Below the pieces are notes generated by a model, which was not told the origin of the DNA, ran no database searches, and worked only from the letters and a program-made list of their open reading frames with translations. Source: a virus. From it: a stretch of DNA of 43,683 nucleotides. The stretch lies in IMG/VR virus record IMGVR_UViG_3300043478_000025; one strand, 5' to 3'. Shown here in pieces: positions 1 through 43,683 of this stretch. Both the position numbers and the translations under genes were made by a program. Each line of letters starts with the position of its first letter. Positions within the stretch are counted from its first letter, which is position 1.

Positions 1-127
1 GGCGTGACGAGCCAGCCATCAGGCATAAAAGCTTCCTCTCTGGAACCCCCAAGCATAGCTGGATTGCGAAGTACACCAGCAGCATAGTTCTTGAGACAGA
101 GAGGAGAGTAGCCAAACGGATTCCTCC
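1..127. repeat. Exact 127-bp terminal direct repeat, copy 1 (circular-assembly overlap)
   Basis: Bases 1-127 (ggcgtgacgagccagcc...aaacggattcctcc) recur verbatim at 43557-43683. The repeat lies inside a minus-strand CDS that stays in frame across the junction. Confidence 0.95.
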
Positions 128-491
128 CTAAGTAGTCATGGAAGTAGTCGTTTACGAAGCCCCAATCGAATCCTACAGGCCACGCTACGAATAGTGGTTT
201 GCCCTCAACCATTTCATCTAGCCAGTCGGCAAACATTTGCATGGCATCTACAACCGGAAGTGGGCTATAACGATGCGCTTCCCATTGTTCCGGCCATTGC
301 TTCCACCACTCCATTGTGTTGTCATCCCACTTGTGGGCAGCAGCAGGCGGGAACTCTAGGTTAACAGTAAATACTTCAGCACGGTTGTAGTCTTCATCGA
401 GAGCTACAGCACCGATGGAACACATTTCAGACACCGAAGGTGACGGCCCTGTAGTTTCGATATCTACCGAGACTAACGAGTACTCACTCAC
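1..491 (-). CDS. DEDDh (DnaQ-like) 3'-5' exonuclease, N-terminal part; continues across the circular junction into 43556..43466
   Basis: Own translation from GTG at 491 gives VSEYSLVSVDIETTG (Exo I), PLFVAWPVGFDWGF (Exo II) and, after the junction, LLPHIAINDA (Exo III H-x4-D). 491+91 nt = 582 nt = 193 aa plus stop. Not in the ORF track because it is split by the window edge. Confidence 0.8.
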   Translation of the reverse strand, partial: MSEYSLVSVDIETTGPSPSVSEMCSIGAVALDEDYNRAEVFTVNLEFPPAAAHKWDDNTMEWWKQWPEQWEAHRYSPLPVVDAMQMFADWLDEMVEGKPLFVAWPVGFDWGFVNDYFHDYLGRNPFGYSPLCLKNYAAGVLRNPAMLGGSREEAFMPDGWLVT

Positions 492-1422
492 TTCTCATCC
501 TTTCTGGGTGCGACAACGCAAGGAACATCAGAGCGAGTATGAATAACGCTACGGCGAATAGAATAGCCAAGTCCGTAAAGAAGCCTGTCTCTGCGAGTGG
601 AGTACGTTTCGGAGTTGTCGGTGGATATTCGACGTAAGCTGTAAGTGTAGGAGTAGCCTGTGTTACGATGAACGGAGTGGTTGTTGGTGGACTGGTGGTT
701 GGTATGGTGGTTGCTGTTGTGGTTGACGGTGTTGTTGTTGTTGGAACTGTTAGTGGTGTAGTTACCGGTACCGTTGTCGTAGGTACTGTGCAGATTAGGT
801 ACTCACCGTTCTTAGCTGAGATGACTGTAGTACGATTATCGGCTGTCTGCTTACCTTGTTGAATGCGCAGAGCCTCAGTGAAATACGAACCAGACGGACC
901 AACATCTTGTAGCGGAACGCCTACAATCGCGTCAAGCTGGTAATTGCAGCCAAGACCGAATCGAGCTAGGTCTGGCATCGGGAACGTGATTTCTCCCGGC
1001 CCAGGCACTAAAAACTCCACTGAGTAACCGCCGTTTGGTCCTGTAAGCTGATCTACGTTCGGATCAAATCTTGGACCTTGTGCTACCTTGACGACGAACG
1101 AAACAGCAGATCCTACACATTCTGGTGCGACGTCTGTCCATGCCATTCTAACCAGATCGGCTTCGTTCAAATCTGGAAGAAGTGAGAGGTCGGACACAGG
1201 TCCGATGTCTACGTTCGTTACCGAATTATGGGTGCCGAACGTTGGATTAAGGACCCCAGTGTAATCACAACCGGGTGTAAGAAACGCTTGCGGCGTTCCT
1301 GGATAGTTAGCGTAGTCTGTGACTAGCGGCGGTCTTTGATTGTCGGGAACCTGGGCTCCTACACTTCCAGAGCCTATGATCCCACCGCCTAGGATCAGGC
1401 CGGCGATAAGAGCCTTCTTCAT
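484..1422 (-). CDS. Secreted, cell-wall-anchored surface protein with a Thr/Pro-rich stalk and an LAETG sortase sorting signal
   Basis: N-terminal signal peptide MKKALIAGLILGGGIIGSGSVGAQV and a ~190-aa globular part. T/P-rich linker (VPTTTVPVTTPLTVPTTTTPSTTTATTIPTTSPPTTTP). LAETG is encoded at 583-597, followed by a hydrophobic helix (FFTDLAILFAVALFILALMFLALS) and a charged tail (HPERMRSE). Confidence 0.8.
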   Translation of the reverse strand: MKKALIAGLILGGGIIGSGSVGAQVPDNQRPPLVTDYANYPGTPQAFLTPGCDYTGVLNPTFGTHNSVTNVDIGPVSDLSLLPDLNEADLVRMAWTDVAPECVGSAVSFVVKVAQGPRFDPNVDQLTGPNGGYSVEFLVPGPGEITFPMPDLARFGLGCNYQLDAIVGVPLQDVGPSGSYFTEALRIQQGKQTADNRTTVISAKNGEYLICTVPTTTVPVTTPLTVPTTTTPSTTTATTIPTTSPPTTTPFIVTQATPTLTAYVEYPPTTPKRTPLAETGFFTDLAILFAVALFILALMFLALSHPERMRSE

Positions 1423-2312
1423 TACTTGTCCGGAATGCTCTCTAGTACCGGCATCACTTCGTAAGTAGAAGTGATTGACCCACCGTCCGTCTCGAACGTG
1501 TATTTCTTAGCCTCCATTTGCTGCCTGGTCATCAACACTCCGTGAGCCTGTAGGACGCTTACTGTGTACGGTGTAGCAATGGGCCACGCCTTTGGTTCAG
1601 TAGGTGAAATAGCCCAGATAGTACCAGGGCCGTGTTTTCCACCGCCGCCTACTTGTACCACGTATCGCATCATATCGTCTTCTTCCTCATCTACTACAGG
1701 ACCAGGTCCTACACTTCCTCCGAGTTCTGCGATTGCAGACTCGACCATTAAATCCGTTCGTTCGACACTGCAATCCCAGTGGTCGTTGCCGACAGCGTCA
1801 ATATGTGCACAAATTCCATCGAATGCCGCCCACTCGGCGTCTGACATTCTGCCATGCCAGTATTCGGACGCACTTCCAGAACTGTCCGTGTGATACCTAA
1901 CGTTGGAAAGGTTAACGTCCAGCCCAATACTCCGCAAAGCTTGCACTTGTGGAGCGATAACGTTGCGACCGATCCAATCGCATTGTTGTCTGGAATAGGT
2001 CTCGACATTAACTACAGGGTTCCCAACTAGTTCGGTCTGGATACAGTACCACTTACGGTTCAGGTACGAGTTGGTGTAGGGTGGTTGATACAGAGCTTTG
2101 CCGGATCTGTTCAGATCAAGACTCTGCCACTTGTCTCCTGTGTAGACATTGGCCCACGCATGAGGCGGGTATTGGTGACTCTGGGCATAAGACATGCTTA
2201 GTCCAGAACTCACAGTCATGTGCAGGCAGATACTTGCAGGATATCCACCGACGTAATCTCCGCCGTTCGTATTGTTGTTCCCGATCCATTGATACCCCGG
2301 AATTGCCAGCAT
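1422..2312 (-). CDS. Putative endolysin (N-acetylmuramoyl-L-alanine amidase, Amidase_2/PGRP-like N-domain plus C-terminal domain)
   Basis: Candidate Zn ligands in T7-lysozyme-like order: SICLHMTV ... IQTELVG ... ICAHIDAVGNDHWDC. An acidic linker (VDEEEDDMM) precedes an ~80-aa C-terminal domain. Sits in a lysis-like cluster with small TM proteins. Confidence 0.5.
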   Translation of the reverse strand: MLAIPGYQWIGNNNTNGGDYVGGYPASICLHMTVSSGLSMSYAQSHQYPPHAWANVYTGDKWQSLDLNRSGKALYQPPYTNSYLNRKWYCIQTELVGNPVVNVETYSRQQCDWIGRNVIAPQVQALRSIGLDVNLSNVRYHTDSSGSASEYWHGRMSDAEWAAFDGICAHIDAVGNDHWDCSVERTDLMVESAIAELGGSVGPGPVVDEEEDDMMRYVVQVGGGGKHGPGTIWAISPTEPKAWPIATPYTVSVLQAHGVLMTRQQMEAKKYTFETDGGSITSTYEVMPVLESIPDK

Positions 2313-2518
2313 CAGTGATGGTCCACATCTTCGTTGTAGTAAGGTCTGGGTTCCACATCTTCCTCGAAGGGTTCGACTTCGTGAGCTTCCATTGTGGATC
2401 TATCCCACTCTACTTCTATCCACCACTCACCGACTTCGATGTTCCAGGTACGAACTACAGTACCAACCATGCCTGATTCTAGGTCACGAACTCGTTGTCC
2501 CTCTCGTGCTCTAATCAT
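2312..2518 (-). CDS. Hypothetical protein (68 aa, acidic C-terminus)
   Basis: ORF-track ORF with start/stop overlaps to both neighbours (ATGATTAG upstream, 1-nt overlap with the endolysin start). Confidence 0.6.
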   Translation of the reverse strand: MIRAREGQRVRDLESGMVGTVVRTWNIEVGEWWIEVEWDRSTMEAHEVEPFEEDVEPRPYYNEDVDHH

Positions 2519-2687
2519 TTCTCCACCAACGTTGCCAGGCGAAAGTCATACCGGGAGGGGCTACTGGACCGAATTTGGCAATGAATGACATGAACTTGTT
2601 ATTCACCCCTAGTTCATCGCCTTGGGCTGCACGATTGCCGATTGCTAGGACAGCGAACATTGCGACGAGCCCGAAGAAGTTAGTCAT
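2511..2687 (-). CDS. Small membrane protein (58 aa), holin candidate
   Basis: Own translation: MTNFFGLVAMFAVLAIGNRAAQGDELGVNNKFMSFIAKFGPVAPPGMTFAWQRWWRND. It has an N-terminal TM segment, its ATG overlaps the stop of the upstream gene and its TAG overlaps the next ATG. Below the 60-aa track cut-off. Confidence 0.5.
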   Translation of the reverse strand: MTNFFGLVAMFAVLAIGNRAAQGDELGVNNKFMSFIAKFGPVAPPGMTFAWQRWWRND

Positions 2688-3324: not shown

Positions 3325-3762
3325 TCACCATATGATTTTCGTTTCTGGATCTACGCCTTGATGAATTGCATAAACTGCGTGAACATAGGCGTCGGTCCAA
3401 TGAGTAGGAGTGCCCTTGTACTTAGCCATTTTATACCCAGCAGGTTTGATCATCGGTTGTTGCACCGTGAAATGCCAGCCCAGGTCATAGGCTTTTCCGT
3501 AGCAGACCCCAATTTGCTTAGTAACAGGTGTAGGAGTCCATTCGGCTGACTTACGAAGGATGAAGTCTTCACAGACCACGATTACGTTCTCAGGGGAGAA
3601 TCCTGTTAGATCGTAGGCTTTGGAGTCCCAACCTTTGACCCATGCCATGAAGTCCGGCCAGGGAACGTTGCCGAAGTCGTGTAGGATCATTTGCCTGTCT
3701 CGCCAGCTAACCCAGGCATAGCCTGTAGTCTTACCTGGGTCGATCCCGAGGTAGAGTGTCAT
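3325..3762 (-). CDS. ruvC: RuvC-like Holliday-junction resolvase
   Basis: N-terminal LGIDPGKTTGYA (catalytic Asp motif), VVCEDFILR (Glu), and C-terminal HWTDAYVHAVYA (His/Asp). Size of 145 aa is typical. Confidence 0.75.
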   Translation of the reverse strand: MTLYLGIDPGKTTGYAWVSWRDRQMILHDFGNVPWPDFMAWVKGWDSKAYDLTGFSPENVIVVCEDFILRKSAEWTPTPVTKQIGVCYGKAYDLGWHFTVQQPMIKPAGYKMAKYKGTPTHWTDAYVHAVYAIHQGVDPETKIIW

Positions 3763-4094
3763 CCAGATTCCTTGTTCTCAAGTAGTCGTTGTAGTTCTTG
3801 TTGCACTATCACAGGGAATTCTTCCCTTACTCGTTTTCGTTGGTCAGCGGTCAAGCCGCCGAATACTCCTACAGGGACATCTATGTTCTGCGATAAACAT
3901 CGCCATCGGACAGGACAGACTTCCCGACACACCGTTGTGGCGATGAAGATGTCCGCAGGTTTGTTACTGAACCAGATGTCAGTCGGTCTGCTTACACACG
4001 CACCCATTCTCTCCCAGGTAGGACGATTAAAGATGTTGGCGAACGCACTTAGATCGACTGATCTGTTTTCAGGCTGGATGCCAGGATCCGTCAT
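3759..4094 (-). CDS. whiB: WhiB-like Fe-S transcription factor
   Basis: Four Cys arranged C-x22-C-x3-C-x5-C (GACVS ... TVCREVCPVRWRC), followed by a GVFGGLT turn and a basic tail (DQRKRVRE). Confidence 0.8.
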   Translation of the reverse strand: MTDPGIQPENRSVDLSAFANIFNRPTWERMGACVSRPTDIWFSNKPADIFIATTVCREVCPVRWRCLSQNIDVPVGVFGGLTADQRKRVREEFPVIVQQELQRLLENKESG

Positions 4095-10501: not shown

Positions 10502-11220
10502 AATGTCCCCGGTGCCCATTTTGTTCCGGTCCAGGTGAACCACCATTTACCAAGGAAGAAGTTATCCCACGACGCCCATGCTCCGGAGCCGTCGGGAAAG
10601 TAACCCAGTCCTTGTAGTTTATCAGCGTTTGCTTGATCGCCGTTCGTAACGGTTGGCTCTGGTGGAAAGTTCTGACTGATCTTCACACTAGCCTTGTTTA
10701 ACGGACCCTGAACCCAGGAGAGATAGTTAGCCGTTTGATCGGCAGGACCTATCCACGTAGCCATATCAGGGTTGTCCGGTAGGCCGATATCTACCCAGTT
10801 TCCTAATGGCCAGGGATTTGTTTGTCCGGCGGCGCCTAGTCCATAGTTCAAATCTTGCATTGTCTGCGGATTATCACAACCCGGAGGCGTAAAGTATCCT
10901 GGGGCTCCCGCAACTACACCTGTTGCTGGGTTAGGAGGAACCGGAGGAACCCAACCCGGAACTAGCGGGCCGTCGTCTAGTGGGTAGAGTTTGTAGTAAC
11001 GCATTGTGTCGCAGAGAATCAATAGATCCCGTGCAACTTTTCTGGATTGTTCTTCGGTCCTACAGTCCCTTCCCATGAACCAGTTTCCCTGGGTTCTCAT
11101 GGCAAGAGCTAGCTGATCTACGTCTACGTCGCTGAATGGAGGGTTTGGGGAGATGTAAGGCTGTATTTGTCCGCCTCCTGGCATCGACGTGACAATCGAC
11201 GCCATGAAAGGTTCGGTCAC
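10498..11220 (-). CDS. Hypothetical protein (240 aa) with an N-domain paralogous to 11483..11920 and a Trp/Pro/Gly-rich C-domain
   Basis: DVDQLALAMRTQGNWFMGRDCRTEEQSRKVARDLLILCDTM aligns with DVDLLALALQRVGPFFLGNDVRSVESARAVALELLQAFLDM of the 145-aa protein. Confidence 0.65.
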   Translation of the reverse strand: MTEPFMASIVTSMPGGGQIQPYISPNPPFSDVDVDQLALAMRTQGNWFMGRDCRTEEQSRKVARDLLILCDTMRYYKLYPLDDGPLVPGWVPPVPPNPATGVVAGAPGYFTPPGCDNPQTMQDLNYGLGAAGQTNPWPLGNWVDIGLPDNPDMATWIGPADQTANYLSWVQGPLNKASVKISQNFPPEPTVTNGDQANADKLQGLGYFPDGSGAWASWDNFFLGKWWFTWTGTKWAPGTL

Positions 11221-31097: not shown

Positions 31098-31755
31098 TCT
31101 ACAAACGTTCGTGTCGGCTCTTGCGGGAGACGAATCTAACGTTCAGTTCACGACGGCACAGATCACGCAGTACCTCAACTGGGCGCAGAAGGAAATGTGT
31201 AGGCGGCTGGAATACTTCCAGAAAACCGCTACAATCACAACACTAGATACAGGCGTTGTAGATAATCAAGGCGGAGCAGTTCTTCCGGCGGACTTCGATC
31301 AGGAACTACACGTCTTCTGGAACGGAAGTAAGATCAGTAAGACCTCCTATGCTGACTTCTATGGACAGCTTGGCGGGGGTGTAGGTACCAGTAATCCCAC
31401 GTATTATGCCATTCAGGACTTTAACTCCACACCAGCACGACGAATGGTGTTCTGGCCTTATCAGTCTCCCGGAAGAACGGGAATTGATCTAGACCTGATC
31501 TATACCGCACAACCTCCCGATCTTGTTGCCGGTGTGGATATTCCGGTGCTTCCTGATGCTTGCCATGAGGCTATGTGTTTGTATGCTCTGGCGAAGTGTA
31601 AACTACAGGAAAACGACTATCAAGCTTATAAGCTCGTTCAGGGTGACTACCTAGCCAAGATAATGGAACTGTCTAGTTTTGTGACAGAAGCGGACGGTTT
31701 CTCGTACCCGATCGTTCGTTCTTCGTACGAGCAGATCGAGTCAATGGATGCGTAG
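31084..31755 (+). CDS. Structural protein, possible head-tail adaptor
   Basis: Call rests on position after the capsid and on size (223 aa). No diagnostic motif was verified. Confidence 0.4.
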   Translation: MNLTSLQTFVSALAGDESNVQFTTAQITQYLNWAQKEMCRRLEYFQKTATITTLDTGVVDNQGGAVLPADFDQELHVFWNGSKISKTSYADFYGQLGGGVGTSNPTYYAIQDFNSTPARRMVFWPYQSPGRTGIDLDLIYTAQPPDLVAGVDIPVLPDACHEAMCLYALAKCKLQENDYQAYKLVQGDYLAKIMELSSFVTEADGFSYPIVRSSYEQIESMDA

Positions 31756-33472
31756 CGACCTCAAAGAGCACACCATCCGTAAGTTCAAAGGAATGAATGC
31801 TTCACGTAATTCTGCCGTGAAGAGTGAGTCCTTCGGCCCCGCCGAAGATCAAATGGTTGACATCAACAATTTCAATGTCAACCCAAGAGGTTATTTAGAG
31901 AAGCGCTGGGGAGTTCAGGAACTCACTAGAATCGTCAATCCCGCAGTGGGTACTGGCGGTCTACGGATAATCGGTATACAACGCGGTACTTTTGGACCAG
32001 CCAGCGGTACGCTAAACATTTCCACGTATAACTACATTCTGGTGACAGATGACGTTAATTTGTGGCGAGTTAACGTACAGACCGGCGAATACCAAAGTAT
32101 TAACATAGGTCACGGTGGCGGTGCGGTTGCGAAAGCACAATGGGCCGCTGAATACGGCGGCCTCAATTCAGCCTCTGCCTACACCGTAACTGTAGTGCGT
32201 CAAGGTACTGGTTTAACGTCTGCGATGGGCGGATTCCTCAGTATCGGTGTCGCTAATAACATCGTCGAAACTCCGGGTTGGATACCTAACACACCTATAG
32301 GCACGCATATCACCATTTTCAAGGATCGTGCCTTCGTCATCAATTCAAACGGCAGTACTGAACTTACCGGTAACGAAACCAAAGTCTGGTATTCTGGAGC
32401 AACGAATCTGGCGGACTTCGGCGGCGTCGCCATGCGAAACTTTAACCTGGACTTTGGCGACGGTGATTATCTAATCGCCACAGTGCCGTTCAATGACCAA
32501 CTGTATTGCTTCAAGACACGTAAAATTTTCTCTGTCAGTCCAGAAGGACAGCCTGCTGACTGGCAATACAAATTGATTTCGGATCGAATCGGTTGTGTAG
32601 GTCGCGGTACGGTAAAGGTTATCGACGGTAAGCTCTATTTTCTGAGTCTGGAGGGTGTAGTTCGTTTCGACGGCGCCCAGGCTGAGCTTATTTCGGAGAA
32701 CGTCAAGGATCTGCTAGAACAGTACCGAGACTTCAAAGATCCAGGCTTGGCGATGAATATGTACGCCTCGCACTGGCAGAATAAGTATATCCTCTGGATG
32801 CCCAGGGACACTGGCGAGGGTTGGGCTTATGACGGTGCGCTGGTATTCGATATCGCGTCTTCTACTTGGACTAGATGGACGCTAGCTAATAACGTACAAG
32901 CATTCAGTGAGGCTAGGTTCTCTGATCTAGGTACTGATTCTCTCTTCTTCGGTACAAACTATACCTCCGGTACCAAGAAGAACCGTATTTGGAAGATGAG
33001 TTCTGAGTCTTGGTCTGATGACGGCATAGCCTTTACTAGCTCATTCAGAACTAAGAAGCTGGACTTTGGTGCTCCTGTAGCACAGAAGCGCATGTTTGCG
33101 TGCGGGGTAACCGTTAAGAATGAACCTACGGATACTACGCCCGCCGGTGGTGCGATTTACCAGATAAGTAATTTCACAGACGATATGTTCGGATATTCTA
33201 CAGCGTATTATGAACCTGTCAAGTTCGGAGTCACTAATTTTCTAGGCCAGCCTCCCAGAAGTCCTTTCAGGTACTGCTACACCTCCGTTACATTGATGCG
33301 TTCTTTGGCTTATTCGGCTGTGTACGACATAACATGGCTTGCAGAAGAACGCGGTATTGAACCATATTCCCGCCCAGGTGGAAGCAAAGTCGAGCAAATT
33401 CCGGCCGCCAACATCGCTAAGGCAGGACCGGACAATAACTGTAAGCTAACCTCCGGATATCTGTTGAGGTAA
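31748..33472 (+). CDS. Tail structural protein, paralogue A1 (574 aa)
   Basis: Shares long conserved blocks with 34633..36204, e.g. KVWYSGATNLADFGGVAMRNFNLDFGDGDYLIATVPFNDQLYCFKT ... WQYKLISDRIGCVGRGTVKVIDGKLYFLSLEGVVRFDG. Confidence 0.6.
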   Translation: MRSDLKEHTIRKFKGMNASRNSAVKSESFGPAEDQMVDINNFNVNPRGYLEKRWGVQELTRIVNPAVGTGGLRIIGIQRGTFGPASGTLNISTYNYILVTDDVNLWRVNVQTGEYQSINIGHGGGAVAKAQWAAEYGGLNSASAYTVTVVRQGTGLTSAMGGFLSIGVANNIVETPGWIPNTPIGTHITIFKDRAFVINSNGSTELTGNETKVWYSGATNLADFGGVAMRNFNLDFGDGDYLIATVPFNDQLYCFKTRKIFSVSPEGQPADWQYKLISDRIGCVGRGTVKVIDGKLYFLSLEGVVRFDGAQAELISENVKDLLEQYRDFKDPGLAMNMYASHWQNKYILWMPRDTGEGWAYDGALVFDIASSTWTRWTLANNVQAFSEARFSDLGTDSLFFGTNYTSGTKKNRIWKMSSESWSDDGIAFTSSFRTKKLDFGAPVAQKRMFACGVTVKNEPTDTTPAGGAIYQISNFTDDMFGYSTAYYEPVKFGVTNFLGQPPRSPFRYCYTSVTLMRSLAYSAVYDITWLAEERGIEPYSRPGGSKVEQIPAANIAKAGPDNNCKLTSGYLLR

Positions 33473-34052: not shown

Positions 34053-34633
34053 TGCCTACTAAAACTTGGGCAGCAGGCGAGGATTTCAACGCCGTTGACA
34101 TCAATTCGTACTTGCAGAATCAGATGGTTTTGCAGTTCGCTAATACCACTGAGCGAGCATCGGAGATACCGAATCCAACCGTAGGGATGGTTTCGTTTCT
34201 GTCTTCTACCGGTGGGTTTGAGGTCTTTACCGACAAAACTACACCACCCTCCTGGAAGCCTCCGTGGAATACGGCTTGGGGTCTTGTTCGTGGTGCTATG
34301 GTCTACGACATTCCGCTCACGGTAAGCCCTGCATGGATATTAACGCAGCTACCTGTACAGGTAGCAGGGCGCAAGTACAAGATAGAGTATGACGTCAACC
34401 TGATTGCTGCTAATACAGGTTTCATGGAAATTAAGTACCAGACTGCCGCAGGCTACGATCTTCAACTCTTGGTCACTAACTATTCCAACTGGCCTAAGCG
34501 TGAGAACGTATGGCAATGTTTCGACGGAGCCCCTACTAATGTCGTCGGTATCATTGGTGCTGCTTGGGCAGACGCCGTTACGGCGGTCATGAGTTACGGT
34601 AGAGTTCGAGTCTTCGATATGGGGCCGATATAG
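34052..34633 (+). CDS. Tail fibre / receptor-binding-like protein, paralogue B2 (193 aa)
   Basis: MPTKTWAAGEDFNAVDINSYLQ ... PTVGMVSFL ... PPWNTAWGL ... RVRVFDMGPI. ATGA-type overlap with B1. Confidence 0.55.
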   Translation: MPTKTWAAGEDFNAVDINSYLQNQMVLQFANTTERASEIPNPTVGMVSFLSSTGGFEVFTDKTTPPSWKPPWNTAWGLVRGAMVYDIPLTVSPAWILTQLPVQVAGRKYKIEYDVNLIAANTGFMEIKYQTAAGYDLQLLVTNYSNWPKRENVWQCFDGAPTNVVGIIGAAWADAVTAVMSYGRVRVFDMGPI

Positions 34634-36204
34634 TGCTGGGTAGAGCGTTCAAGCCAGTCACGATCAAGAAATTCAAGGGCATGAACACGGCTCTGTCTGG
34701 TTCAGTTCCAGAAGCGTACTCTCAGGATGACCAAGAACTAGCCGAACTCATCAACTTCAACACCAACACCGACGGTTATTTAGAGAAGCGTAAGGGTGCT
34801 AACCTCGTTGCTTCCATAACGGCACCCTATACTCCCACTAAACTGCGTGTAGTTTACCTACAGCGCACTCGTGTAGGTTCGCTTTCTAACCGAATATTCG
34901 TAACAGACGACACCGAAACCTGGCGACTAAGCGCAGCCGGTGGGGCTGCAACTAGACTAACTCTGGCTGGTGGTCCTCTAAGTTCTCTACAGTCAATGGT
35001 TGAATATGGTGGAGTTAACTCTGCTACGGCGTATAACTGTACCGGAGTTCGTTGGTGGCCTACACAGGTCCCGGCCGAAATGGCTACCGGTGTCATAGGT
35101 TTCTACGGCGATACTTCTGTAGGTCAAGCCGGACCTATAACTAATTCGCCGATTGGCACCCAAATCAGTCTCTTCAAGAACCGTGGCTGGATCATCAACA
35201 CGATGGGCAAGTACAATTCCTCTGGCCATGAGACGAAAGTGTGGTATTCAGCCGCTACTAACCTTAGTGACTGGGGTGGAGCCGCACTTTCTAACTTCAA
35301 CCTGGATTTCGGTGACGGCGACTTTTTGGTAGCTATGCTGCCGTTCAATGAGCAAATGTTTTTCTTCAAGACCAAGAAGACCTACATGGTATCTGCCGAC
35401 GGTCCACCAAGTAACTGGCAGTACCGATTGATTTCTGACAGGATCGGGTGTGTAGGTCGAGGAACCGTCAAAGTCATCAATAACATCATCTACTTCCTTA
35501 GTGTAGATGGTGTAGTTCGTACTGACGGCGTCACGTTCCAGAACATTTCAGATCCAATCCGAGACTTCTTCGATTCCTACAGGGATTACTGGAAGCCCGA
35601 GACGGCGATGAATCTGTACGCCTCTTATTGGGACTTCAAGTACATTCTCTGGATGCCTTCTAGCAACGGTACCATCAATACAGCTCTTGTATTCGATGTG
35701 CGAACCGAAGGCTGGACGATGTATAAACTAGGCGGCGGAGTAACCGCCTTGGGTGAAGTTCTCTGGGATGAGCATTACCCAGAAACACTGCTTTTCGGGT
35801 CTTCTACTGGGAATCAGATCTGGTCGTTCGGTGTTAACGTCTACAAGGATAACTCTGTAGATTTCGATTGTACGTTCACTACTAAGAAGTACGATTTCGA
35901 CTCAGCTATGAAGAAGAAGCGCAATCATCTAGTCGGCTTGTCTGTAGGGGATGTAAACACGTTTCAGCCTGGTAGTATTACCGTAAGCAACACCGCAGAC
36001 GACAACGTGACTACTACCAGAACCGAAGTACCCAGTGTTAGCGGCGCAATGAATGTTAAAGCTCGGGGCTCAGGATACGGCAGATACTTCCAGGCTAAAG
36101 TTCAACATAAGTCGGGTAGCTTCATTGCCGTATACGATCTTACGTTCATGAATGAAGACCGATCCTTCGAGCCGAAGTCTAGTCCGCCAGTGAAGACCGC
36201 ATGA
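34633..36204 (+). CDS. Tail structural protein, paralogue A2 (523 aa, GTG start)
   Basis: KVWYSAATNLSDWGGAALSNFNLDFGDGDFLVAMLPFNEQMFFFKT ... WQYRLISDRIGCVGRGTVKVINNIIYFLSVDGVVRTDG, colinear with A1. Confidence 0.6.
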   Translation: MLGRAFKPVTIKKFKGMNTALSGSVPEAYSQDDQELAELINFNTNTDGYLEKRKGANLVASITAPYTPTKLRVVYLQRTRVGSLSNRIFVTDDTETWRLSAAGGAATRLTLAGGPLSSLQSMVEYGGVNSATAYNCTGVRWWPTQVPAEMATGVIGFYGDTSVGQAGPITNSPIGTQISLFKNRGWIINTMGKYNSSGHETKVWYSAATNLSDWGGAALSNFNLDFGDGDFLVAMLPFNEQMFFFKTKKTYMVSADGPPSNWQYRLISDRIGCVGRGTVKVINNIIYFLSVDGVVRTDGVTFQNISDPIRDFFDSYRDYWKPETAMNLYASYWDFKYILWMPSSNGTINTALVFDVRTEGWTMYKLGGGVTALGEVLWDEHYPETLLFGSSTGNQIWSFGVNVYKDNSVDFDCTFTTKKYDFDSAMKKKRNHLVGLSVGDVNTFQPGSITVSNTADDNVTTTRTEVPSVSGAMNVKARGSGYGRYFQAKVQHKSGSFIAVYDLTFMNEDRSFEPKSSPPVKTA

Positions 36205-36656: not shown

Positions 36657-36893
36657 ATGAATTTACAGGAAATGCTCATGGGCCTACAAGGTCCACCGAC
36701 AGCATCACAGAAGGTATTCGATCCACGAGGTTTAACAGGGGAGATGGCGAGAGGTAGTAATGTTTACCTCGGTGGCCTTCCCGCCGCACCGGGAGCCGGA
36801 CGACCAAGAAAACCAGCACCGGTCAACGCACAACAAATGAATCCGGCGCTCATGGCAGCGATCAATAAGAGGTTGGCTGGCTATGCCCATTAA
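36657..36893 (+). CDS. Virion-module hypothetical protein (78 aa)
   Basis: ORF-track ORF tightly packed in the late operon. Confidence 0.6.
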   Translation: MNLQEMLMGLQGPPTASQKVFDPRGLTGEMARGSNVYLGGLPAAPGAGRPRKPAPVNAQQMNPALMAAINKRLAGYAH

Positions 36894-37920
36894 CCAATAC
36901 GGTCTACAGACATCAGACGACCAGAATAAACTGGGGACTTCCGGTACTGGAATCATCGACTCCGGAAACCAACAAGCCTCGGGGCCTGTAGGACAGCAGA
37001 GTCCTTTCAGTGCAGTAACTCCTGGACAAATTTCTGCTGCCGGTGCTGCTCCCGTACTTCCTACAGTTCAGCAGTACGCCTTCAATCCTAAGTACGCTGC
37101 TCAGAGCCAGGCTCTTGAGCAGATGTTAGCGGATAAGCAGCTAGAGCAAAACAACCAGTTGTTCGCTGCCCAACAGGACTTCGATCGACAGAAAACTGAT
37201 GCCGGAACTACACGTCAGAAAGCTTTAGATGCTCTGATCGCTAAGTTTGCAACATCCGGTATGATCGGATCTACCGCTGACGCCGAGACTCGCGGTGATC
37301 TTGAGACTAACTATAACAAGTATCTAAGCGATCTAGCACTTGGGCTAGGAAACACTCAACAAGGTATTAGAGGCAACTACGCTAATACCGTTCGAGATGT
37401 GAACTTCCAGCGTGCTGATATGTGGAGCAAGCAAGGCGAGGAAGATCTAGCTGAACGACGTCGTCAAGACGAAATTCGTCTTCAAGGCGAACGAGATAGA
37501 GCAGCCGCTGATAACGCTCGAATGATCGCAGATTCAAACAGAGCAGCCGCAGAAGCAGCCGCTAACAATCGTCCCGTAATTAACATTCCGTCTCCTTATG
37601 CTCCTGGTGGTGGGGGCGGAGGTGGTGGAGGCGGTGGTGGCGGTGGAGGTGGAGCAGGCGGAGGTGGTTTTGGATGGAACATTCCGTGGGCTGGGATTGC
37701 ACCGTCTGATTCCTACCAAGACATCGTGAACCAGATCGCTTTGCTTGGTCAATCCGGTGCTAGTCATCAGCTAAGTCTGTTGTATTCTGCTCCGGAAATG
37801 CAGGGACAGAACGTTGCTGATCTTAAGAAGAACCTTGGTAGTGCAATCTACAAGGCTTCGACACCCGGCGCACCAGGATATATGCCCACGGATTACTCTA
37901 ATCCTGGAGGTTTCTGGTAA
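36883..37920 (+). CDS. Putative internal virion/ejection protein with a coiled-coil region and a poly-Gly tract (345 aa)
   Basis: Position before two further large proteins resembles a podovirus internal-core set. A Gly run is encoded at 37606-37668. Confidence 0.45.
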   Translation: MPINQYGLQTSDDQNKLGTSGTGIIDSGNQQASGPVGQQSPFSAVTPGQISAAGAAPVLPTVQQYAFNPKYAAQSQALEQMLADKQLEQNNQLFAAQQDFDRQKTDAGTTRQKALDALIAKFATSGMIGSTADAETRGDLETNYNKYLSDLALGLGNTQQGIRGNYANTVRDVNFQRADMWSKQGEEDLAERRRQDEIRLQGERDRAAADNARMIADSNRAAAEAAANNRPVINIPSPYAPGGGGGGGGGGGGGGGGAGGGGFGWNIPWAGIAPSDSYQDIVNQIALLGQSGASHQLSLLYSAPEMQGQNVADLKKNLGSAIYKASTPGAPGYMPTDYSNPGGFW

Positions 37921-39152
37921 TGGCTGACCCAGGTCTATGGGATGCCGCACAAGCAAATATTGCGGTAAAGTACGATCCCCAACAAGCAGCACTACAGCGG
38001 CAGCTTGAACTGTCGCAGAAGAACACAGCTTCGAGTGAACAAGCTATTCAGGGTTTCGGCAACACTGGGCGAACGAACATCGGGACCAACTTCGCTACCC
38101 TGTACGGTCTTCTCGGAGCGAATAAAACAGATACACAGAACGCTCTGAATCAGCAAGTAGATTTGACGAATCAAGGCTACGATCAAGCGATTAAGAACAT
38201 TCAAGGATACCAGCAGGGATCCAGGGATTACATCGCTCAGATGGCTGCGGCTCTAGGCCAGTCTGGACAAGGACTAGTTTCCTCTGGTAAGTTGGAAGAC
38301 GTAGCGAACCAGCAGCTAGGCTACGCCCAAGGAGCCAGAACAAACTACGGAAGCACCCTATCTGACTGGGTTGCTAAGATGGGTTCTCTGGCTGATATGG
38401 GGATCGCCAGCGCTCATCAAAACGAAGCATTGAAGCTGTCGGGCTTTGAGTCCGATCTGCTCAACATGCTTGGTCAGAACAAGCTCGCGGGAACCACACA
38501 AGAAACAGATGTAATCAATAAGATCGCTGATCTGATGAACGTCAGACAGAGCGATCTGGTAGATATGTACAACCAGCTTGTTGCAGCACAATGGCAACGA
38601 GATTTCGAGCAGGCTAAGCTCAATGAACAGGCTTCTGAACACGCAGCATCTCTTGCAAACGCTAGGGATATTGCAGCTATGCAAGAATCGGGAGCTAACT
38701 CTCGTGCCGCTGCTGCGAAGGACGATTCGCTGGATTGGGCTAAGTTCAATGAGGGTGTACGACAGTTCAACCTAGGCCGTGAAGATACGGCGAGTTCTTC
38801 TGCAGCCACAAACGCCTTCAATGAACGAGAGTTCCAGGCTAAGTATCCAGGAACAGGTGATCCTAGTGCGCTCACTGGTATGATCGACTCTGGTCTTATC
38901 AGTGCAAATGATCCTGGTGCGGCAAATGCTTGGTTGACCGGCGGACCTCAAGGACTACAGACCTACAACAGCAATCAAGCTGGATTGAAGCAGGTCCAGG
39001 ATATGCTTCAAGGTCTAGGTAGAAGTGTAGGTGGCGGCGACGGCTTCTGGGGTACCAGAAATACCAACGGCGATCCTTGGGGATGGGATCAAGCGCAGGG
39101 TGTAGGTAACTGGGTAAGCAATAACTGGAACAAGTGGCCTTGGGATTACTAA
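37920..39152 (+). CDS. Putative internal virion protein (410 aa, Q/N/G/A-rich)
   Basis: Call rests on position and composition. TAATG overlap with the upstream stop. Confidence 0.45.
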   Translation: MADPGLWDAAQANIAVKYDPQQAALQRQLELSQKNTASSEQAIQGFGNTGRTNIGTNFATLYGLLGANKTDTQNALNQQVDLTNQGYDQAIKNIQGYQQGSRDYIAQMAAALGQSGQGLVSSGKLEDVANQQLGYAQGARTNYGSTLSDWVAKMGSLADMGIASAHQNEALKLSGFESDLLNMLGQNKLAGTTQETDVINKIADLMNVRQSDLVDMYNQLVAAQWQRDFEQAKLNEQASEHAASLANARDIAAMQESGANSRAAAAKDDSLDWAKFNEGVRQFNLGREDTASSSAATNAFNEREFQAKYPGTGDPSALTGMIDSGLISANDPGAANAWLTGGPQGLQTYNSNQAGLKQVQDMLQGLGRSVGGGDGFWGTRNTNGDPWGWDQAQGVGNWVSNNWNKWPWDY

Positions 39153-39155
39153 TCT

Positions 39156-42100
39156 ATGGCTTCTAAGCAGCTAACCCAAGACGAAATTATGAAGATGAGC
39201 CAGTATCTTCGGCAACAACGAGCCGAAGGTGGGTCGCCTCATAGGATTCAGCAGGACCCTCTCGGAGCAAAAGGAGAGGGTCTAAAGCAGGCTGGATTAG
39301 GTGCTTTGAAGACTACTTTCAACGTTTTGGACCAGTTGAAGTCGTCGATTACTACAGGACTCTACGAATCCTTTAACGAGAAGAACCGAGCTAGTCTTTC
39401 TACTGATCCCTTTGTAGGCTTCTGGGAAGGGTTGACAGGCAAGAGACACACGTCTGTTTCGGATATTCTCAAGGACGACTTCGGGGTTAAGAACAAGGTA
39501 GCACTCGGCGTCGGTGGGTTTGTAGGAGACATTGCTCTAGATCCTCTTACTTACGTCGGACTAGCACCACTCAAAGGCATATCTACCGGCGAAGCTACTT
39601 TGCGAGCTACACAGCAAATCGGCAAAGCAGTCGAAGAAGGTACTCTGGCTGCGGAACACATGCCGCAGGCTGTAGCTGATTTAGCCAAACAGCTCGGTAA
39701 AGAGAACCCGTATAAGTTCAAGGTTGAAGTCGGTCTGCCAGGCCGTAAGATAGGTGTAGCAGAAGTTAGACAGCCGGAAGTAGTCAACAAGCTTCGTGAG
39801 TTCGTCAAGGGTCCTGAAGGAGAAGCACGAGGATTTGTTAAGGCGCTCTCTCGTAATGCCGAAGAGCCATTTGGACTAGCTAGCGAGTCACGAACTATCC
39901 AAAGCGACTTTGCGGGGAAAATGAACCGCAATCAGCGGGCTCTACTGAAACTACACAATGAAGTAGACTACGGCTCACGTCGCATCGCAGCACTAGCTTA
40001 TGAAAATCCTGAGTACTTCAATGAAGTCAAGGATGTTCCGCTAATAACCCAGGATACTGTAGGCGGTCTTGCTGGCAGAATCATGCGTATGGGTCGAGGC
40101 GAGACTAGCGCCCTTATGGAAGCCCGAGATGGCGGCATTAATACGATCGGTGAGTACGTAGATTATGTGCGTAGTCATCGTCGTATGATGACGGAGAAAG
40201 AAATGGAAGCTGGGATGCACCGTCATCTCCTTCCTACACAACAAGAAGCCTCCCAGCCCAGTCTGTTTAGTCTGAGTGAGTACCGTAAGCCGACAGGTAG
40301 AATTTCTCGGAGTAAGAATGTTATCGAGTGGCAGGATCTTTCCAGAGGCGAGAAAGATGCCATTCTAGATAGTACAAATCAGCTACTCCCCAAGCGTGTA
40401 CTAAAGCCTAAAGAGCTAGAGATTATTCGAGGCCAGAACAAGCAACTCGGCAAAGCCGGCGAGTCGTATGTGTCCCCCAATATGACGCCATTTGAGGGTC
40501 CGAATGGACTTCTCAGTACCCGTGCTGACCCTGTAGTTGACATTGGTGAGTCCCATATCACTTCGATGGCTAACTCATTCCGGGATCAAACCCAAGCTAA
40601 GATCGTCCGCAGAGCCTTGGAAACCATCGGAATAAAGGCTGATTCCGTCGAAGGCAGGGCGATGTTAGACAACCTAGCCGCCAAGGAGTCTATGGGCATT
40701 CGTTGGACTAACGTTCAACGTGGAAAGGGCGGAAACGCACTACTTAACGAAGTAGCCCAACACTCAGATTTTAAGAATATGGTGATTCCTGAGCCGATCC
40801 AGAGGCTCCTGAATACTCAACACGAGATTCTTAATAACGACGACCTCGGTGCTAAGTTCATGCAGCACTTTGATCGTGTAATGAGCCATTGGAAGGCGCT
40901 CAACACTACGCTAAATCCAGGCTACATGACTAGAAACGCCGTAAGTGATGTGATTGCTAACTTCGCCGACGGCGTTTTCGATCCTCGCAGGTACCTACAG
41001 GCTCACCAGGTGCTCTCGGAAATTAAGAAGAACGACGTTATTGACCTAGCCGAAACGCTTCGTGATCCAACTTCTGCACTTCATGTACCTAACCTAAGCG
41101 CTCCATCTGACGTAGCCATCCGCATCGGCGGACGTGCTCATAACCCACGAGAGATTTGGAATGCTGGCACAGAGAACGGCGTCTTCTCTGGTGAAATTGT
41201 TACTGAGAGAATGAAGGGTGCTGTAGGAGACCCCGGTGCTGTAGGAGTCTCTAAGGACCCCGGAACTGCCCTCAAATTTGCCAACATCAAGGACACGCTA
41301 GACAAGAACGTAAAGCAGACCGCTTCTAATGCACTTAACCTTGCTGAAGCTAGGATGGCTGATGTAAACATAGCAAGAGAGACAAACCAGCGATACGCTC
41401 ACTTCATTGACCGTTATGACAAGGAAGTGACGAGCGGTCTAAAGAGCTACGCTAAGGAACACAAAATAGGTTCTAGGAATTTAGAGGCTATTCGTGCACA
41501 CATGGGCACAGAAGCCGCTACGCAACTAGAACAGAAAGCTGCTAAGACGGCAGCAGAGAGAGTTCGTAAGTTCAACATCGACTACGGTTCGTTGTCATCG
41601 TTTGAGAAGAAATACATGAAGCGGTTGATTCCGTTCTACAGCTTCTTCCGTAAGAACGCACCCCTACAGATGTCGATGTTGTTCACCAAGCCTGGCTTCA
41701 TGAATGCTTACCCAAAGACCTTCGAGGCCATTCAAAACGTAATCGGAACAAATGACGGCAACGGTGACTGGATGGTTCCTGATTGGATTCGGGAATCCAT
41801 GCCAGTGCGTTTGGCTGTAGCTGGTTCCCAGGGAAACATTGTTAGCCAAATCGCTCGGTTCGCCTCTGGTGCTTCTGACGACACTTCTGTGTTCTTGCCT
41901 ATGATGCAAGGACTTATGCCTGCATCTGATGTCGGTACGGTTCTTGGCCCACTACAAAGAGCTTACGACACGCACAGTGTTAACCAGGGTGTTCAGGCGA
42001 TTGCACAGAACTCAGCCAACATGGCGAACCCCGCTTTGAAGATGTGGTTTGAGAAAGCTACAGGTACGAATGCAAGTACCGGTGGTCCTATTGAACCGAG

Positions 42101-42434
42101 TTTCAGTAAGTGGCTTGTAGGATCTACTCTGGGCGCTCCTGGACGTTTGGCATACAACGTTTTACCGCCCGGTGATCGTGCTATAGCTCCTTCAGTTACA
42201 TCTACAGCTTTGGGTCCGCAGCTTAGGAACGTTGATCAGACCTATCAGAAGTCGGAGTTCCAGCACAGGCGGAACTTGATGAACCAACAGGTTAAGAGTC
42301 TGCGCATGGAGATTGCTAAGCAGAGAGGCATTGATCCGGAGAGTGAGCGATTCGGTAGGATAACAAGCCCTGAAATCCGTCAAATGTTGAACTACATGAA
42401 GAAGGCTGGGAGGTCGGTTGGCACCTACGGTTAA
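39156..42434 (+). CDS. Large virion protein (1092 aa), probable internal core/ejection protein
   Basis: Last and largest gene of the late operon, as in podovirus gp16-like proteins. I could identify no catalytic motif. Confidence 0.45.
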   Translation: MASKQLTQDEIMKMSQYLRQQRAEGGSPHRIQQDPLGAKGEGLKQAGLGALKTTFNVLDQLKSSITTGLYESFNEKNRASLSTDPFVGFWEGLTGKRHTSVSDILKDDFGVKNKVALGVGGFVGDIALDPLTYVGLAPLKGISTGEATLRATQQIGKAVEEGTLAAEHMPQAVADLAKQLGKENPYKFKVEVGLPGRKIGVAEVRQPEVVNKLREFVKGPEGEARGFVKALSRNAEEPFGLASESRTIQSDFAGKMNRNQRALLKLHNEVDYGSRRIAALAYENPEYFNEVKDVPLITQDTVGGLAGRIMRMGRGETSALMEARDGGINTIGEYVDYVRSHRRMMTEKEMEAGMHRHLLPTQQEASQPSLFSLSEYRKPTGRISRSKNVIEWQDLSRGEKDAILDSTNQLLPKRVLKPKELEIIRGQNKQLGKAGESYVSPNMTPFEGPNGLLSTRADPVVDIGESHITSMANSFRDQTQAKIVRRALETIGIKADSVEGRAMLDNLAAKESMGIRWTNVQRGKGGNALLNEVAQHSDFKNMVIPEPIQRLLNTQHEILNNDDLGAKFMQHFDRVMSHWKALNTTLNPGYMTRNAVSDVIANFADGVFDPRRYLQAHQVLSEIKKNDVIDLAETLRDPTSALHVPNLSAPSDVAIRIGGRAHNPREIWNAGTENGVFSGEIVTERMKGAVGDPGAVGVSKDPGTALKFANIKDTLDKNVKQTASNALNLAEARMADVNIARETNQRYAHFIDRYDKEVTSGLKSYAKEHKIGSRNLEAIRAHMGTEAATQLEQKAAKTAAERVRKFNIDYGSLSSFEKKYMKRLIPFYSFFRKNAPLQMSMLFTKPGFMNAYPKTFEAIQNVIGTNDGNGDWMVPDWIRESMPVRLAVAGSQGNIVSQIARFASGASDDTSVFLPMMQGLMPASDVGTVLGPLQRAYDTHSVNQGVQAIAQNSANMANPALKMWFEKATGTNASTGGPIEPSFSKWLVGSTLGAPGRLAYNVLPPGDRAIAPSVTSTALGPQLRNVDQTYQKSEFQHRRNLMNQQVKSLRMEIAKQRGIDPESERFGRITSPEIRQMLNYMKKAGRSVGTYG

Positions 42435-43103: not shown

Positions 43104-43466
43104 TTATCGAACAGGAGGTCCACCAGGAGGCATTGCACCTGACATCGGAGGCATCATTCCCATTCTACCCTGCATTGCTGGGTTTTGTCCCGGAGGCGGA
43201 CCCATAGGAACAGCACCAGGAGGAAGACCCATAGGAGGACCACCGGGAGGCATTCCACCAGGACCCCCAGGACCACCTGGGGGAGCAGAACCTTCCATTT
43301 GAGCAAGCATCATCATGATTGCTTGCAACATCGCTGGATCCATCTTTCCTCCTGAACTCTTCTTGCTACTGCCACGACGGTCATTCTTGTTGTCTGGTGT
43401 CTTGCCTTCTACGTCTACCTTGTTGTCCTTCTTCTGTTCCATCTTGAATCCGTGCTCTGTAGCCAT
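43104..43466 (-). CDS. Low-complexity Pro/Gly/Met-rich protein (120 aa)
   Basis: A basic N-terminal third and a Met-rich helix (MDPAMLQAIMMMLAQMEG), followed by PPGGPGGPGGMPPGGPPMGLPPGAVPMGPPPGQNPAMQGRMGMMPPMSGAMPPGGPP. The opposite-strand ORF 42871..43302 is a shadow. Confidence 0.65.
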   Translation of the reverse strand: MATEHGFKMEQKKDNKVDVEGKTPDNKNDRRGSSKKSSGGKMDPAMLQAIMMMLAQMEGSAPPGGPGGPGGMPPGGPPMGLPPGAVPMGPPPGQNPAMQGRMGMMPPMSGAMPPGGPPVR

Positions 43467-43683
43467 CAGCCAGTGTACCTCATTATGTTGCGGATCATCA
43501 TTGCCTGAGCAATCGCGTCATTGATTGCGATATGCGGGAGAAGACCGATACTCTCGGGCGTGACGAGCCAGCCATCAGGCATAAAAGCTTCCTCTCTGGA
43601 ACCCCCAAGCATAGCTGGATTGCGAAGTACACCAGCAGCATAGTTCTTGAGACAGAGAGGAGAGTAGCCAAACGGATTCCTCC
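43466..43683 (-). CDS. DEDDh exonuclease, C-terminal part (43557-43683 duplicates 1-127)
   Basis: Stop TGA at 43468-43466, overlapping the next ATG by 1 nt. Encodes ...PESIGLLPHIAINDAIAQAMMIRNIMRYTG, which includes the Exo III H-x4-D. Confidence 0.8.
   Translation of the reverse strand, partial: RNPFGYSPLCLKNYAAGVLRNPAMLGGSREEAFMPDGWLVTPESIGLLPHIAINDAIAQAMMIRNIMRYTG
43557..43683. repeat. Exact 127-bp terminal direct repeat, copy 2
   Basis: Identical to 1-127. Unique genome length is therefore 43556 bp. Confidence 0.95.

Follow-up and report, generated by a model that had tools for sequence, protein, structure and literature searches.

A predicted wall-anchored surface protein

The virus record IMGVR_UViG_3300043478_000025 is 43,683 nucleotides long, and this whole stretch is referred to below as the window. 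On its minus strand is an open reading frame (ORF) that predicts a 312 amino acid (aa) protein, here called the target, with the features of a surface protein that a sortase would attach to the Gram-positive cell wall. An earlier sequence-only reading of the window had proposed a full sorting architecture for this ORF and, the tail aside, all of its parts were found in the places assigned to them. The gene and its segments are listed here.

484..1422, minus strand: target ORF, predicted wall-anchored surface protein (ATG start, 312 aa plus stop)
1354..1422, minus strand: predicted signal peptide, residues 1-23 (MKKALIAGLILGGGIIGSGSVGA, then QV), identified by inspection from its n, h and c regions and the V-x-A rule
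790..1353, minus strand: head domain, residues 24-211, a predicted beta-sandwich delimited by alignment and AlphaFold2
598..789, minus strand: Thr/Pro-rich stalk, residues 212-275 (64 aa; 44% Thr, 22% Pro), predicted disordered
583..597, minus strand: LAETG sortase recognition pentapeptide, residues 276-280 of 312, a class E motif
511..582, minus strand: hydrophobic membrane-retention segment, residues 281-304 (24 aa), from Kyte-Doolittle values and AlphaFold2
484..510, minus strand: predicted cytoplasmic tail HPERMRSE plus stop, with 2 Arg and 1 His against 2 Glu

By inspection, the signal peptide is made up of MKK, a 14-residue hydrophobic/Gly core and VGA|Q, and has neither a lipobox Cys nor a twin-Arg motif. 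Cleavage is predicted between A23 and Q24, residues 1-51 contain no Cys, and the A/G|Q junction is conserved in the alignment of 35 homologues. The Thr/Pro-rich stalk expected from the earlier reading is present but is 64 aa long, not ~70 aa.

The LAETG pentapeptide had been located exactly. Downstream of it, Kyte-Doolittle values in a 19-residue window peak at 3.1 and AlphaFold2 predicts a helix over residues 283-303, which agrees with the hydrophobic helix proposed for this position. The Streptomyces sortase SrtE1 prefers LAETG to LPETG 2-fold as a substrate for cleavage, and LAXTG is the class E signal (PMC5148588), as had been assumed when the motif was first assigned to this class. The window has 295 stop-to-stop segments that are 60 aa or longer; a motif, a hydrophobic stretch and a basic tail occur together in one of them, the target, and residue shuffles give a chance expectation of 0.02 such sorting signals per proteome. 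Ten contigs, which come from at least six samples, encode a protein identical to the target, and some of these contigs (several) have a length of 43,679-43,697 bp.

Conservation of the sorting motif in an uncharacterised family

A search with the full-length protein identified 46 homologues, an exhaustive search with the head 114 clusters (50% identity) and a profile search 104 clusters. Nearly all members of the family are 280-350 aa long and have the same layout. In the alignment, Y40, P41, C52, C102, Q125, C159, Q162, D164, G168, L171, G175 and P176 of the head are invariant. D36, Y37, K112 and Y161 are likewise counted as invariant positions. The head also includes four conserved Cys (52, 102, 159 and 211) and the conserved motifs TDYANYP and YQLDAIVG.PL..VGP. 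The signal peptide, stalk and tail are hypervariable.

Amid the hypervariable C-terminus, T279 and G280 are invariant (35 of 35) and lie at a fixed distance before the helix. The forms of the motif seen in the family are LAETG, LAATG, LAKTG, IAQTG, IARTG, FGATG, MAVTG, FAVTG, LPATG, LPFTG and IPATG, and relatives with a canonical LPFTG, LPATG or LPRTG are present. In copies of the phage clade, the P3 residue is Ala or Gly and never Pro, while LPATG or LPTTG is the form found in the sister alleles of the host. Longer relatives carry Ig-like PLipase_C_C repeats in place of the Thr/Pro stalk, and two of them (P0041 and P0086) reach the cut-off of the Pfam anchor model PF00746, which is also assigned to P0148 and P0252 in precomputed annotation. 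Across the alignment, matches to the anchor models (PF00746 and NCBIfam) are weak and are seen in just 3 of the 35 relatives. The Joint Genome Institute (JGI) label for P0011, P0030 and P0230 is LPXTG protein; P0011, which belongs to the phage clade, is annotated as 'LPXTG-motif cell wall-anchored protein'.

Scans of the target protein against Pfam, NCBIfam, PHROGs and PADLOC gave no meaningful match, and its matches to NCBIfam BimA and Pfam mucin models were rejected as effects of Thr/Pro composition only. Sequence searches of the PDB with the target returned low-complexity or anchor-region matches only. Against 50,697 phage records, nothing was found by tblastn of the target and the adjacent lysin or by megablast of the first 8 kb of the window. 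The head family is uncharacterised, being without a Pfam, PHROG or PDB neighbour.

In the AlphaFold2 model of the full-length protein, residues ~30-210 form an all-beta sandwich with predicted local distance difference test (pLDDT) values >90, the stalk is disordered (pLDDT 52-65) and the C-terminus is helical. A head-only model has a pLDDT of 92.5 and a predicted template modelling score (pTM) of 0.89. The signal peptide and globular domain of the earlier reading are both retained, the former from its n/h/c layout and the latter from the pLDDT of the head. Structure prediction and a fold search of the head had been recommended there; the first gave a confident beta-sandwich, but Foldseek found no neighbour of the head at E<1e-3 when the full and head-only models were compared with the PDB and the full model with BFVD. 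The top matches, to PDE6D, RhoGDI, GM2 activator and a Wzt sugar-binding domain, are generic Ig-like sandwiches with template modelling (TM) scores ≤0.4, and are not taken here as functional evidence. The modelled fold supports a role as a displayed binding head but points to no ligand, and the four conserved Cys would be in keeping with disulfide bonds in a domain outside the cytoplasm. Pfam and Foldseek revealed nothing in the target that resembles a hydrolase, either in signature or in fold.

Host ancestry of the gene

Every named match to the family is from metagenome-assembled genomes (MAGs) of Acidimicrobiia/Acidimicrobiales. Distant members, with 31-41% identity, lie amid core genes: between sucC-sucD and purH in L013, beside purA and a Clp ATPase gene in L011, and beside etfA in L015. 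The closest cellular alleles, with 73-79% head identity, are on a 329 kb contig, ERZ25039504 contig_134872, and a 3 kb contig with a GC content of 0.71-0.72, and the GC content at third codon positions (GC3) of these genes is 0.85-0.95. The phage gene has a GC content of 0.507 and a GC3 of 0.44, matching the rest of the phage. From these comparisons, the phage gene is a captured surface-protein gene of an Acidimicrobiia host. As its GC and GC3 match those of the phage, the transfer is an old one and was followed by adaptation of the gene to the phage. A recent capture from the host is ruled out by the phage-like values (0.51/0.44) against 0.71-0.72 in the host alleles.

A recent transfer from phage to host was likewise considered for allele P0012 (L027, 1610-2557), which has a head 79% identical to the phage head, and was ruled out by its host-like DNA (72% GC). 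The odd C-terminus of P0012 is an assembly frameshift, and the +1 frame restores PLPATG and a hydrophobic segment.

In L001 (6084-6623, minus strand) and L003 (5640-6092, minus strand), the closest chromosomal homologues, P0013 and P0020, are near an Imm_superinfect (PF14373) gene, helicase fragments and an RNase H/RVT_3 gene, and the L003 locus also includes an integrase fragment. These host alleles may occupy a variable or defence-type island and not the core genome.

The WhiB-like gene of the phage, together with the Acidimicrobiia homologues, places the host in the phylum Actinomycetota. Phages carrying the gene have a GC content of 0.49-0.52, and the Acidimicrobiia genomes with the closest relatives (L001, L027 and L011-L016) of 0.67-0.72. 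If those Acidimicrobiia are the hosts, phage and host differ in composition by ~20 points.

Phage genome and gene neighbourhood

An exact direct repeat of 127 bp is found at the two ends of the window (1-127 = 43557-43683). This repeat is the overlap of a circular assembly, and the genome is complete at 43,556 bp. The genome encodes a large terminase, a portal, a major head protein and an SU10-type adaptor, as well as a PolA-type polymerase, helicases, a RuvC-like resolvase and a WhiB-like regulator. Tail proteins of 345, 410 and 1092 aa are encoded at 36883-42434. No integrase, repressor family or sortase was found among the phage ORFs scanned, and an Rfam scan of the window found nothing. 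Given the structural set, the WhiB-like gene and the lack of an integrase among the scanned ORFs, 'lytic-looking podovirus of an actinobacterium' is a fair label, and the first part of it had already been used when the sequence was first read. The WhiB-like gene (3759-4094, minus strand; PHROG 472 and others) is the chief pointer within the window to an actinobacterial host.

The minus-strand genes are, in order, those for a 58-aa membrane protein, a 68-aa protein, the 296-aa lysin, the target, a DEDD exonuclease and two small proteins, and the tail genes are convergent with them. The principal neighbours of the target gene are as follows.

2511..2687, minus strand: 58-aa, possibly holin-like protein that has a single hydrophobic segment and is encoded two genes upstream of the lysin
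1422..2312, minus strand: putative modular endolysin, 296 aa, upstream of the target, with domain swaps among its relatives
1..491 and on across the circular junction to 43466, minus strand: DEDD (Rv2179c-like) exonuclease, downstream of the target, with a GTG start at 491

The ATG of the target shares one base with the stop codon of the upstream lysin gene (TAATG, 1420-1424), an overlap pointed out in the sequence-only reading along with the small membrane protein at 2511..2687. No family match was obtained for the latter. Because the GTG of the exonuclease at 491 overlaps the 3′-end of the target gene, the target sits inside the operon and not at its end. It is on the replication/lysis strand, opposite to the structural strand.

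The 296-aa lysin has no direct match in Pfam, PHROGs or the PDB. Its N-terminal 200 aa share 65% identity with P0163, which has PG_binding_1 at its C-terminus, and its C-terminal ~90 aa (205-296) are common to P0199, which has Amidase_2 at its N-terminus. As its relatives show lysin-type module swapping, the protein is accepted here as a putative endolysin with an undescribed catalytic-domain family, and the domain swaps back the earlier assignment. The N-terminal domain (~200 aa) has invariant Q92, E94, H170, D177, H178 and D180, and relatives pair it with PG_binding_1 or PG_binding_3. This domain seems to be a catalytic family of lysins, and the 90-aa C-terminal domain a wall-binding module, neither of them described before.

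Two further features of the genome were recorded. A 120-aa protein (43104-43466, minus strand) is almost all Pro/Gly/Met in its C-terminal two thirds (PPGGPGGPGGMPPGGPPMG...) and has no family match. The products of 31748-33472 and 34633-36204 (both plus strand; 574 and 523 aa) each match PHROGs 3287 (virion structural protein) and 511 (internal virion protein), and look like diverged paralogues within the structural module.

Distribution among phages and selection

The phage copies form a single clade that is sister to the closest host alleles, and they occupy three unrelated layouts, all with a GC content of 0.49-0.52. The first is the podovirus-like window. The second is found in siphoviruses with a 1,579-aa tape-measure protein, in which the gene comes after the tail genes, a Dp-1-type holin gene and genes for small membrane proteins; no lysin of the window's type is near the gene in these loci. 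In the third, contig L024, the gene overlaps the stop codon of a tail-fibre-like gene and faces a RuvC-like gene. More distant relatives are on one conjugative-element-like contig (FtsK/SpoIIIE, SLT_2, HNH) and on another, possibly a mobile element, that has DUF932 and small genes all on one strand. A 5.9 kb contig binned in a Chitinophagaceae MAG (L010, JBEVKW010000434.1) is a fragment of the siphovirus with P0008 and is probably mis-binned, on the basis of an identical 315-aa protein and of DUF6353 and phage TAC genes.

These layouts bear on whether the target could be part of the virion, with a structural or a decorating function. In L024 and the siphoviruses the gene ends the tail-gene block, Ig-like sandwiches are common as virion decorations, and Foldseek gave weak matches to phage proteins of the Big-1 and Ig-like kinds. 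However, virion assembly in the cytoplasm does not suit a protein that has a cleavable Sec signal and, at its C-terminus, a membrane anchor and sorting motif, the four conserved Cys suggest extracytoplasmic disulfides, and the gene in the window is on the replication/lysis strand and not the structural strand. A virion component is therefore considered extremely unlikely.

A 44.7 kb relative, L028, is syntenic with the window over the PDDEXK, AAA_24, helicase, PolA, lysin and exonuclease genes. The lysin and exonuclease DNA of the two is ~69% identical, and the lysins share 58% aa identity. No member of the target family was found across 20.9 kb of L028. The slot (10900-11124) is filled by a 74-aa ORF directly after the lysin gene, which predicts a protein with two hydrophobic, putatively transmembrane, segments; this protein may be holin-like. 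Since a syntenic relative carries this membrane-protein ORF in place of a family member, the target gene is optional cargo at a variable site in the phage lineage.

A role in lysis had been raised as a further possibility in the sequence-only reading. The target would then act with the endolysin or holin, loosening or marking the wall, or tethering or regulating the lysin. Its start codon overlaps the lysin stop, and the siphovirus copies are ~1 kb downstream of the Dp-1-type holin gene, amid small membrane proteins. Against this, L028 keeps a homologous lysin and the exonuclease without the target gene, the siphovirus loci have the gene but lack a neighbouring lysin like that of the window, and in L024 it comes after a tail-fibre-like gene. 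The family consists mostly of chromosomal host genes, and neither the sequence nor the modelled fold of the target has hydrolase features. A dedicated lysis role is judged highly unlikely, as the gene is optional and its neighbours differ in other phages. The idea that the head is the missing endolysin of the siphoviruses was also ruled out, given the lack of hydrolase features and the chromosomal nature of the family.

Between the podovirus and siphovirus copies, identity is 80-89% in the head and 23-52% in the stalk and anchor. In the head, the proportion of nonsynonymous differences (pN) is 0.11-0.13 and that of synonymous differences (pS) is ~0.8, a saturated value. The head is under strong purifying selection.

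The host ancestry and the selection on the head can also be explained if the gene is cargo with a host function, comparable to an auxiliary metabolic gene (AMG), with the phage copy doing the job of the chromosomal protein (nutrient, polymer or cell binding), which it would maintain or raise during a long infection, and having no part in exclusion. The host homologues are chromosomal and in housekeeping neighbourhoods. With 73-79% identity to the host alleles and strong purifying selection, the phage head would probably keep the binding partner of the host head. A head, stalk and anchor is also the layout of adhesins and binding proteins. However, Foldseek gave no clue to a ligand or fold, the relatives on the conjugative-element-like and DUF932 contigs suggest a benefit to mobile elements generally, and the gene is dispensable in the close relative L028. 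This explanation is regarded as unlikely.

Proposed role at the surface of the infected cell

The target is likely to be a phage-encoded sortase substrate that is anchored by a sortase, as judged from its sequence features. Because it has every sequence signal for covalent wall attachment, the phage probably alters the surface of the infected cell. In the mechanism proposed, the product would be exported via Sec and the signal peptide removed after Ala23. The C-terminal helix and the Arg-containing tail would retain the protein in the membrane until the housekeeping (class E-type) sortase of the host cuts LAET|G and passes it to lipid II, and thence to peptidoglycan. The 64-aa Thr/Pro stalk would span the wall and display the predicted disulfide-stabilised beta-sandwich head on the infected cell, and the head would remain on wall debris after lysis. 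The head may bind a conserved envelope component and remodel or mask the surface, excluding competing phages or mobile elements, or preventing progeny from adhering to wall debris.

Several observations count against this scheme. The target matches neither PF00746 nor the NCBIfam LPXTG anchor models even at E≤1, so that the check with sorting-signal models suggested by the earlier reading was negative; the miss is attributed here to the training of these models on Firmicute LPXTG signals. The tail, which had been described as positively charged, contains basic residues but has a net charge of ~0 and is weakly positive at best, while the tails of most homologues are more basic (e.g. RRRQLNS and KTRHVRR). 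Several phage-clade copies have odd P4 and P3 residues (FGATG, MAVTG and FAVTG), perhaps a sign that processing is relaxed or of another kind. Neither the loci examined nor the scanned phage ORFs revealed a sortase gene, and the host is placed only to Actinomycetota/Acidimicrobiia. The head offers no functional clue beyond its similarity to generic Ig-like sandwiches, PADLOC has no match to the target, and scans for promoters and terminators around the gene gave signals at or below chance. Finally, covalent anchoring depends on a wall that is still being synthesised, and late in the lytic cycle such synthesis may be restricted.

The first three of these points would also be expected of a type I membrane protein that is held by its C-terminal helix and not processed by a sortase, with the xxTG kept for another reason. 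Against this reading, all 35 of the aligned sequences have T-G, always equally far ahead of the helix, amid variable surroundings. Relatives with LPFTG, LPATG and LPRTG reach the Pfam anchor threshold, and LAETG is a proven class E substrate (PMC5148588). Membrane anchoring without sortase processing is thus improbable, and the sortase-anchored form is preferred.

For the sortase-anchored protein, the explanation that accounts best for the whole is a host-derived surface-protein gene, carried as accessory cargo by one lineage of a lytic-looking, podovirus-like phage of Acidimicrobiia, between the endolysin and exonuclease genes, and used for surface remodelling or exclusion; taken in its entirety, this has about an even chance of being correct. 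The use itself, surface remodelling or exclusion, is put forward tentatively as a best guess drawn by inference. The movement of the gene among at least three unrelated phage architectures, together with strong purifying selection, suggests that covalently re-decorating the host wall would be of general benefit during infection. A more specific version, which is doubtful, is that lytic phages of Acidimicrobiia exploit the sortase pathway of the host to graft a captured, lectin-like host head covalently onto peptidoglycan and so mask a receptor on cells and debris. Being covalently anchored, such a graft would outlast lysis on wall fragments and would mask the receptor on infected cells and debris alike. 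It would amount to sortase-dependent, covalent superinfection exclusion or progeny protection that is shared horizontally among unrelated phages and mobile elements; this too is rather doubtful and, if true, would be new for phages.

Comparison with known systems

The nearest functional parallels to the anchor are the class E substrates of Streptomyces, the chaplins ChpA-C, which have in common with the target a signal peptide, LAxTG, a hydrophobic segment and a tail containing charged residues. The chaplins carry an amyloid domain, whereas the target has an unrelated beta-sandwich, is encoded by a phage and is associated with a host of the class Acidimicrobiia.

SasX is a wall-anchored protein of a PhiSPbeta-like prophage in Staphylococcus aureus ST239 (PMC10232760), and resembles the target in that a phage genome carries a wall-anchored surface protein as cargo. 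However, the SasX phage is a temperate Firmicute prophage, and SasX is a colonisation and aggregation factor for the lysogen. The target is on a circular-assembling genome with no integrase or repressor among the scanned ORFs, has an LAxTG motif and shows no similarity to entries in the phage database.

PrgA (Sec10) is an LPXTG surface-exclusion protein of plasmid pCF10 that alters the cell surface and thereby lowers the uptake of competing copies (bioRxiv 10.1101/2020.06.18.156562). Like the target as predicted here, it is a sortase-anchored protein of a mobile element with a head that a stalk holds off the wall, and a relative of the target is on a conjugative-element-like contig. In PrgA the stalk is a coiled coil and the head a CAP protease, whereas the target has a disordered Thr/Pro stalk and a small beta-sandwich with no protease signature. 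Exclusion, the function of PrgA, is a proposed one for the target.

Phage superinfection-exclusion lipoproteins with a lipobox Cys include Ltp of Streptococcus thermophilus and Llp of T5. The likeness here is in the proposed logic only, that a phage-made envelope protein blocks later infection or spares progeny from receptor-bearing debris. The target differs in having an A|Q signal-peptidase I site without a Cys and a C-terminal sortase signal, and is not homologous to these proteins. Exclusion through receptor blocking has been described for T5, and GamR is an LPXTG wall-anchored receptor of Bacillus phage gamma (PMC9863714). GamR is a host gene product, not phage-borne, and has no sequence relationship to the target. 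Since GamR demonstrates that a phage can use a sortase-anchored protein as its receptor, a receptor-related role of the host homologue and the phage copy is conceivable. The target is homologous to none of the chaplins, SasX, PrgA or GamR.

Literature searches, incomplete in coverage, turned up no lytic phage and no Acidimicrobiia phage for which a sortase substrate has been reported, so that this is absence of evidence only. Known phage-borne sortase substrates come from prophages of Firmicute pathogens and benefit the lysogen. The predicted target would extend them to lytic-looking environmental phages and to an uncultured actinobacterial class, and the new elements are the class E (LAxTG) signal and a head from an uncharacterised family. 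The target is a candidate wall-anchored exclusion or anti-adsorption factor and a possible new surface-display module for Actinobacteria, and its gene would be a marker that ties phages of ~50% GC to Acidimicrobiia hosts of ~70% GC.

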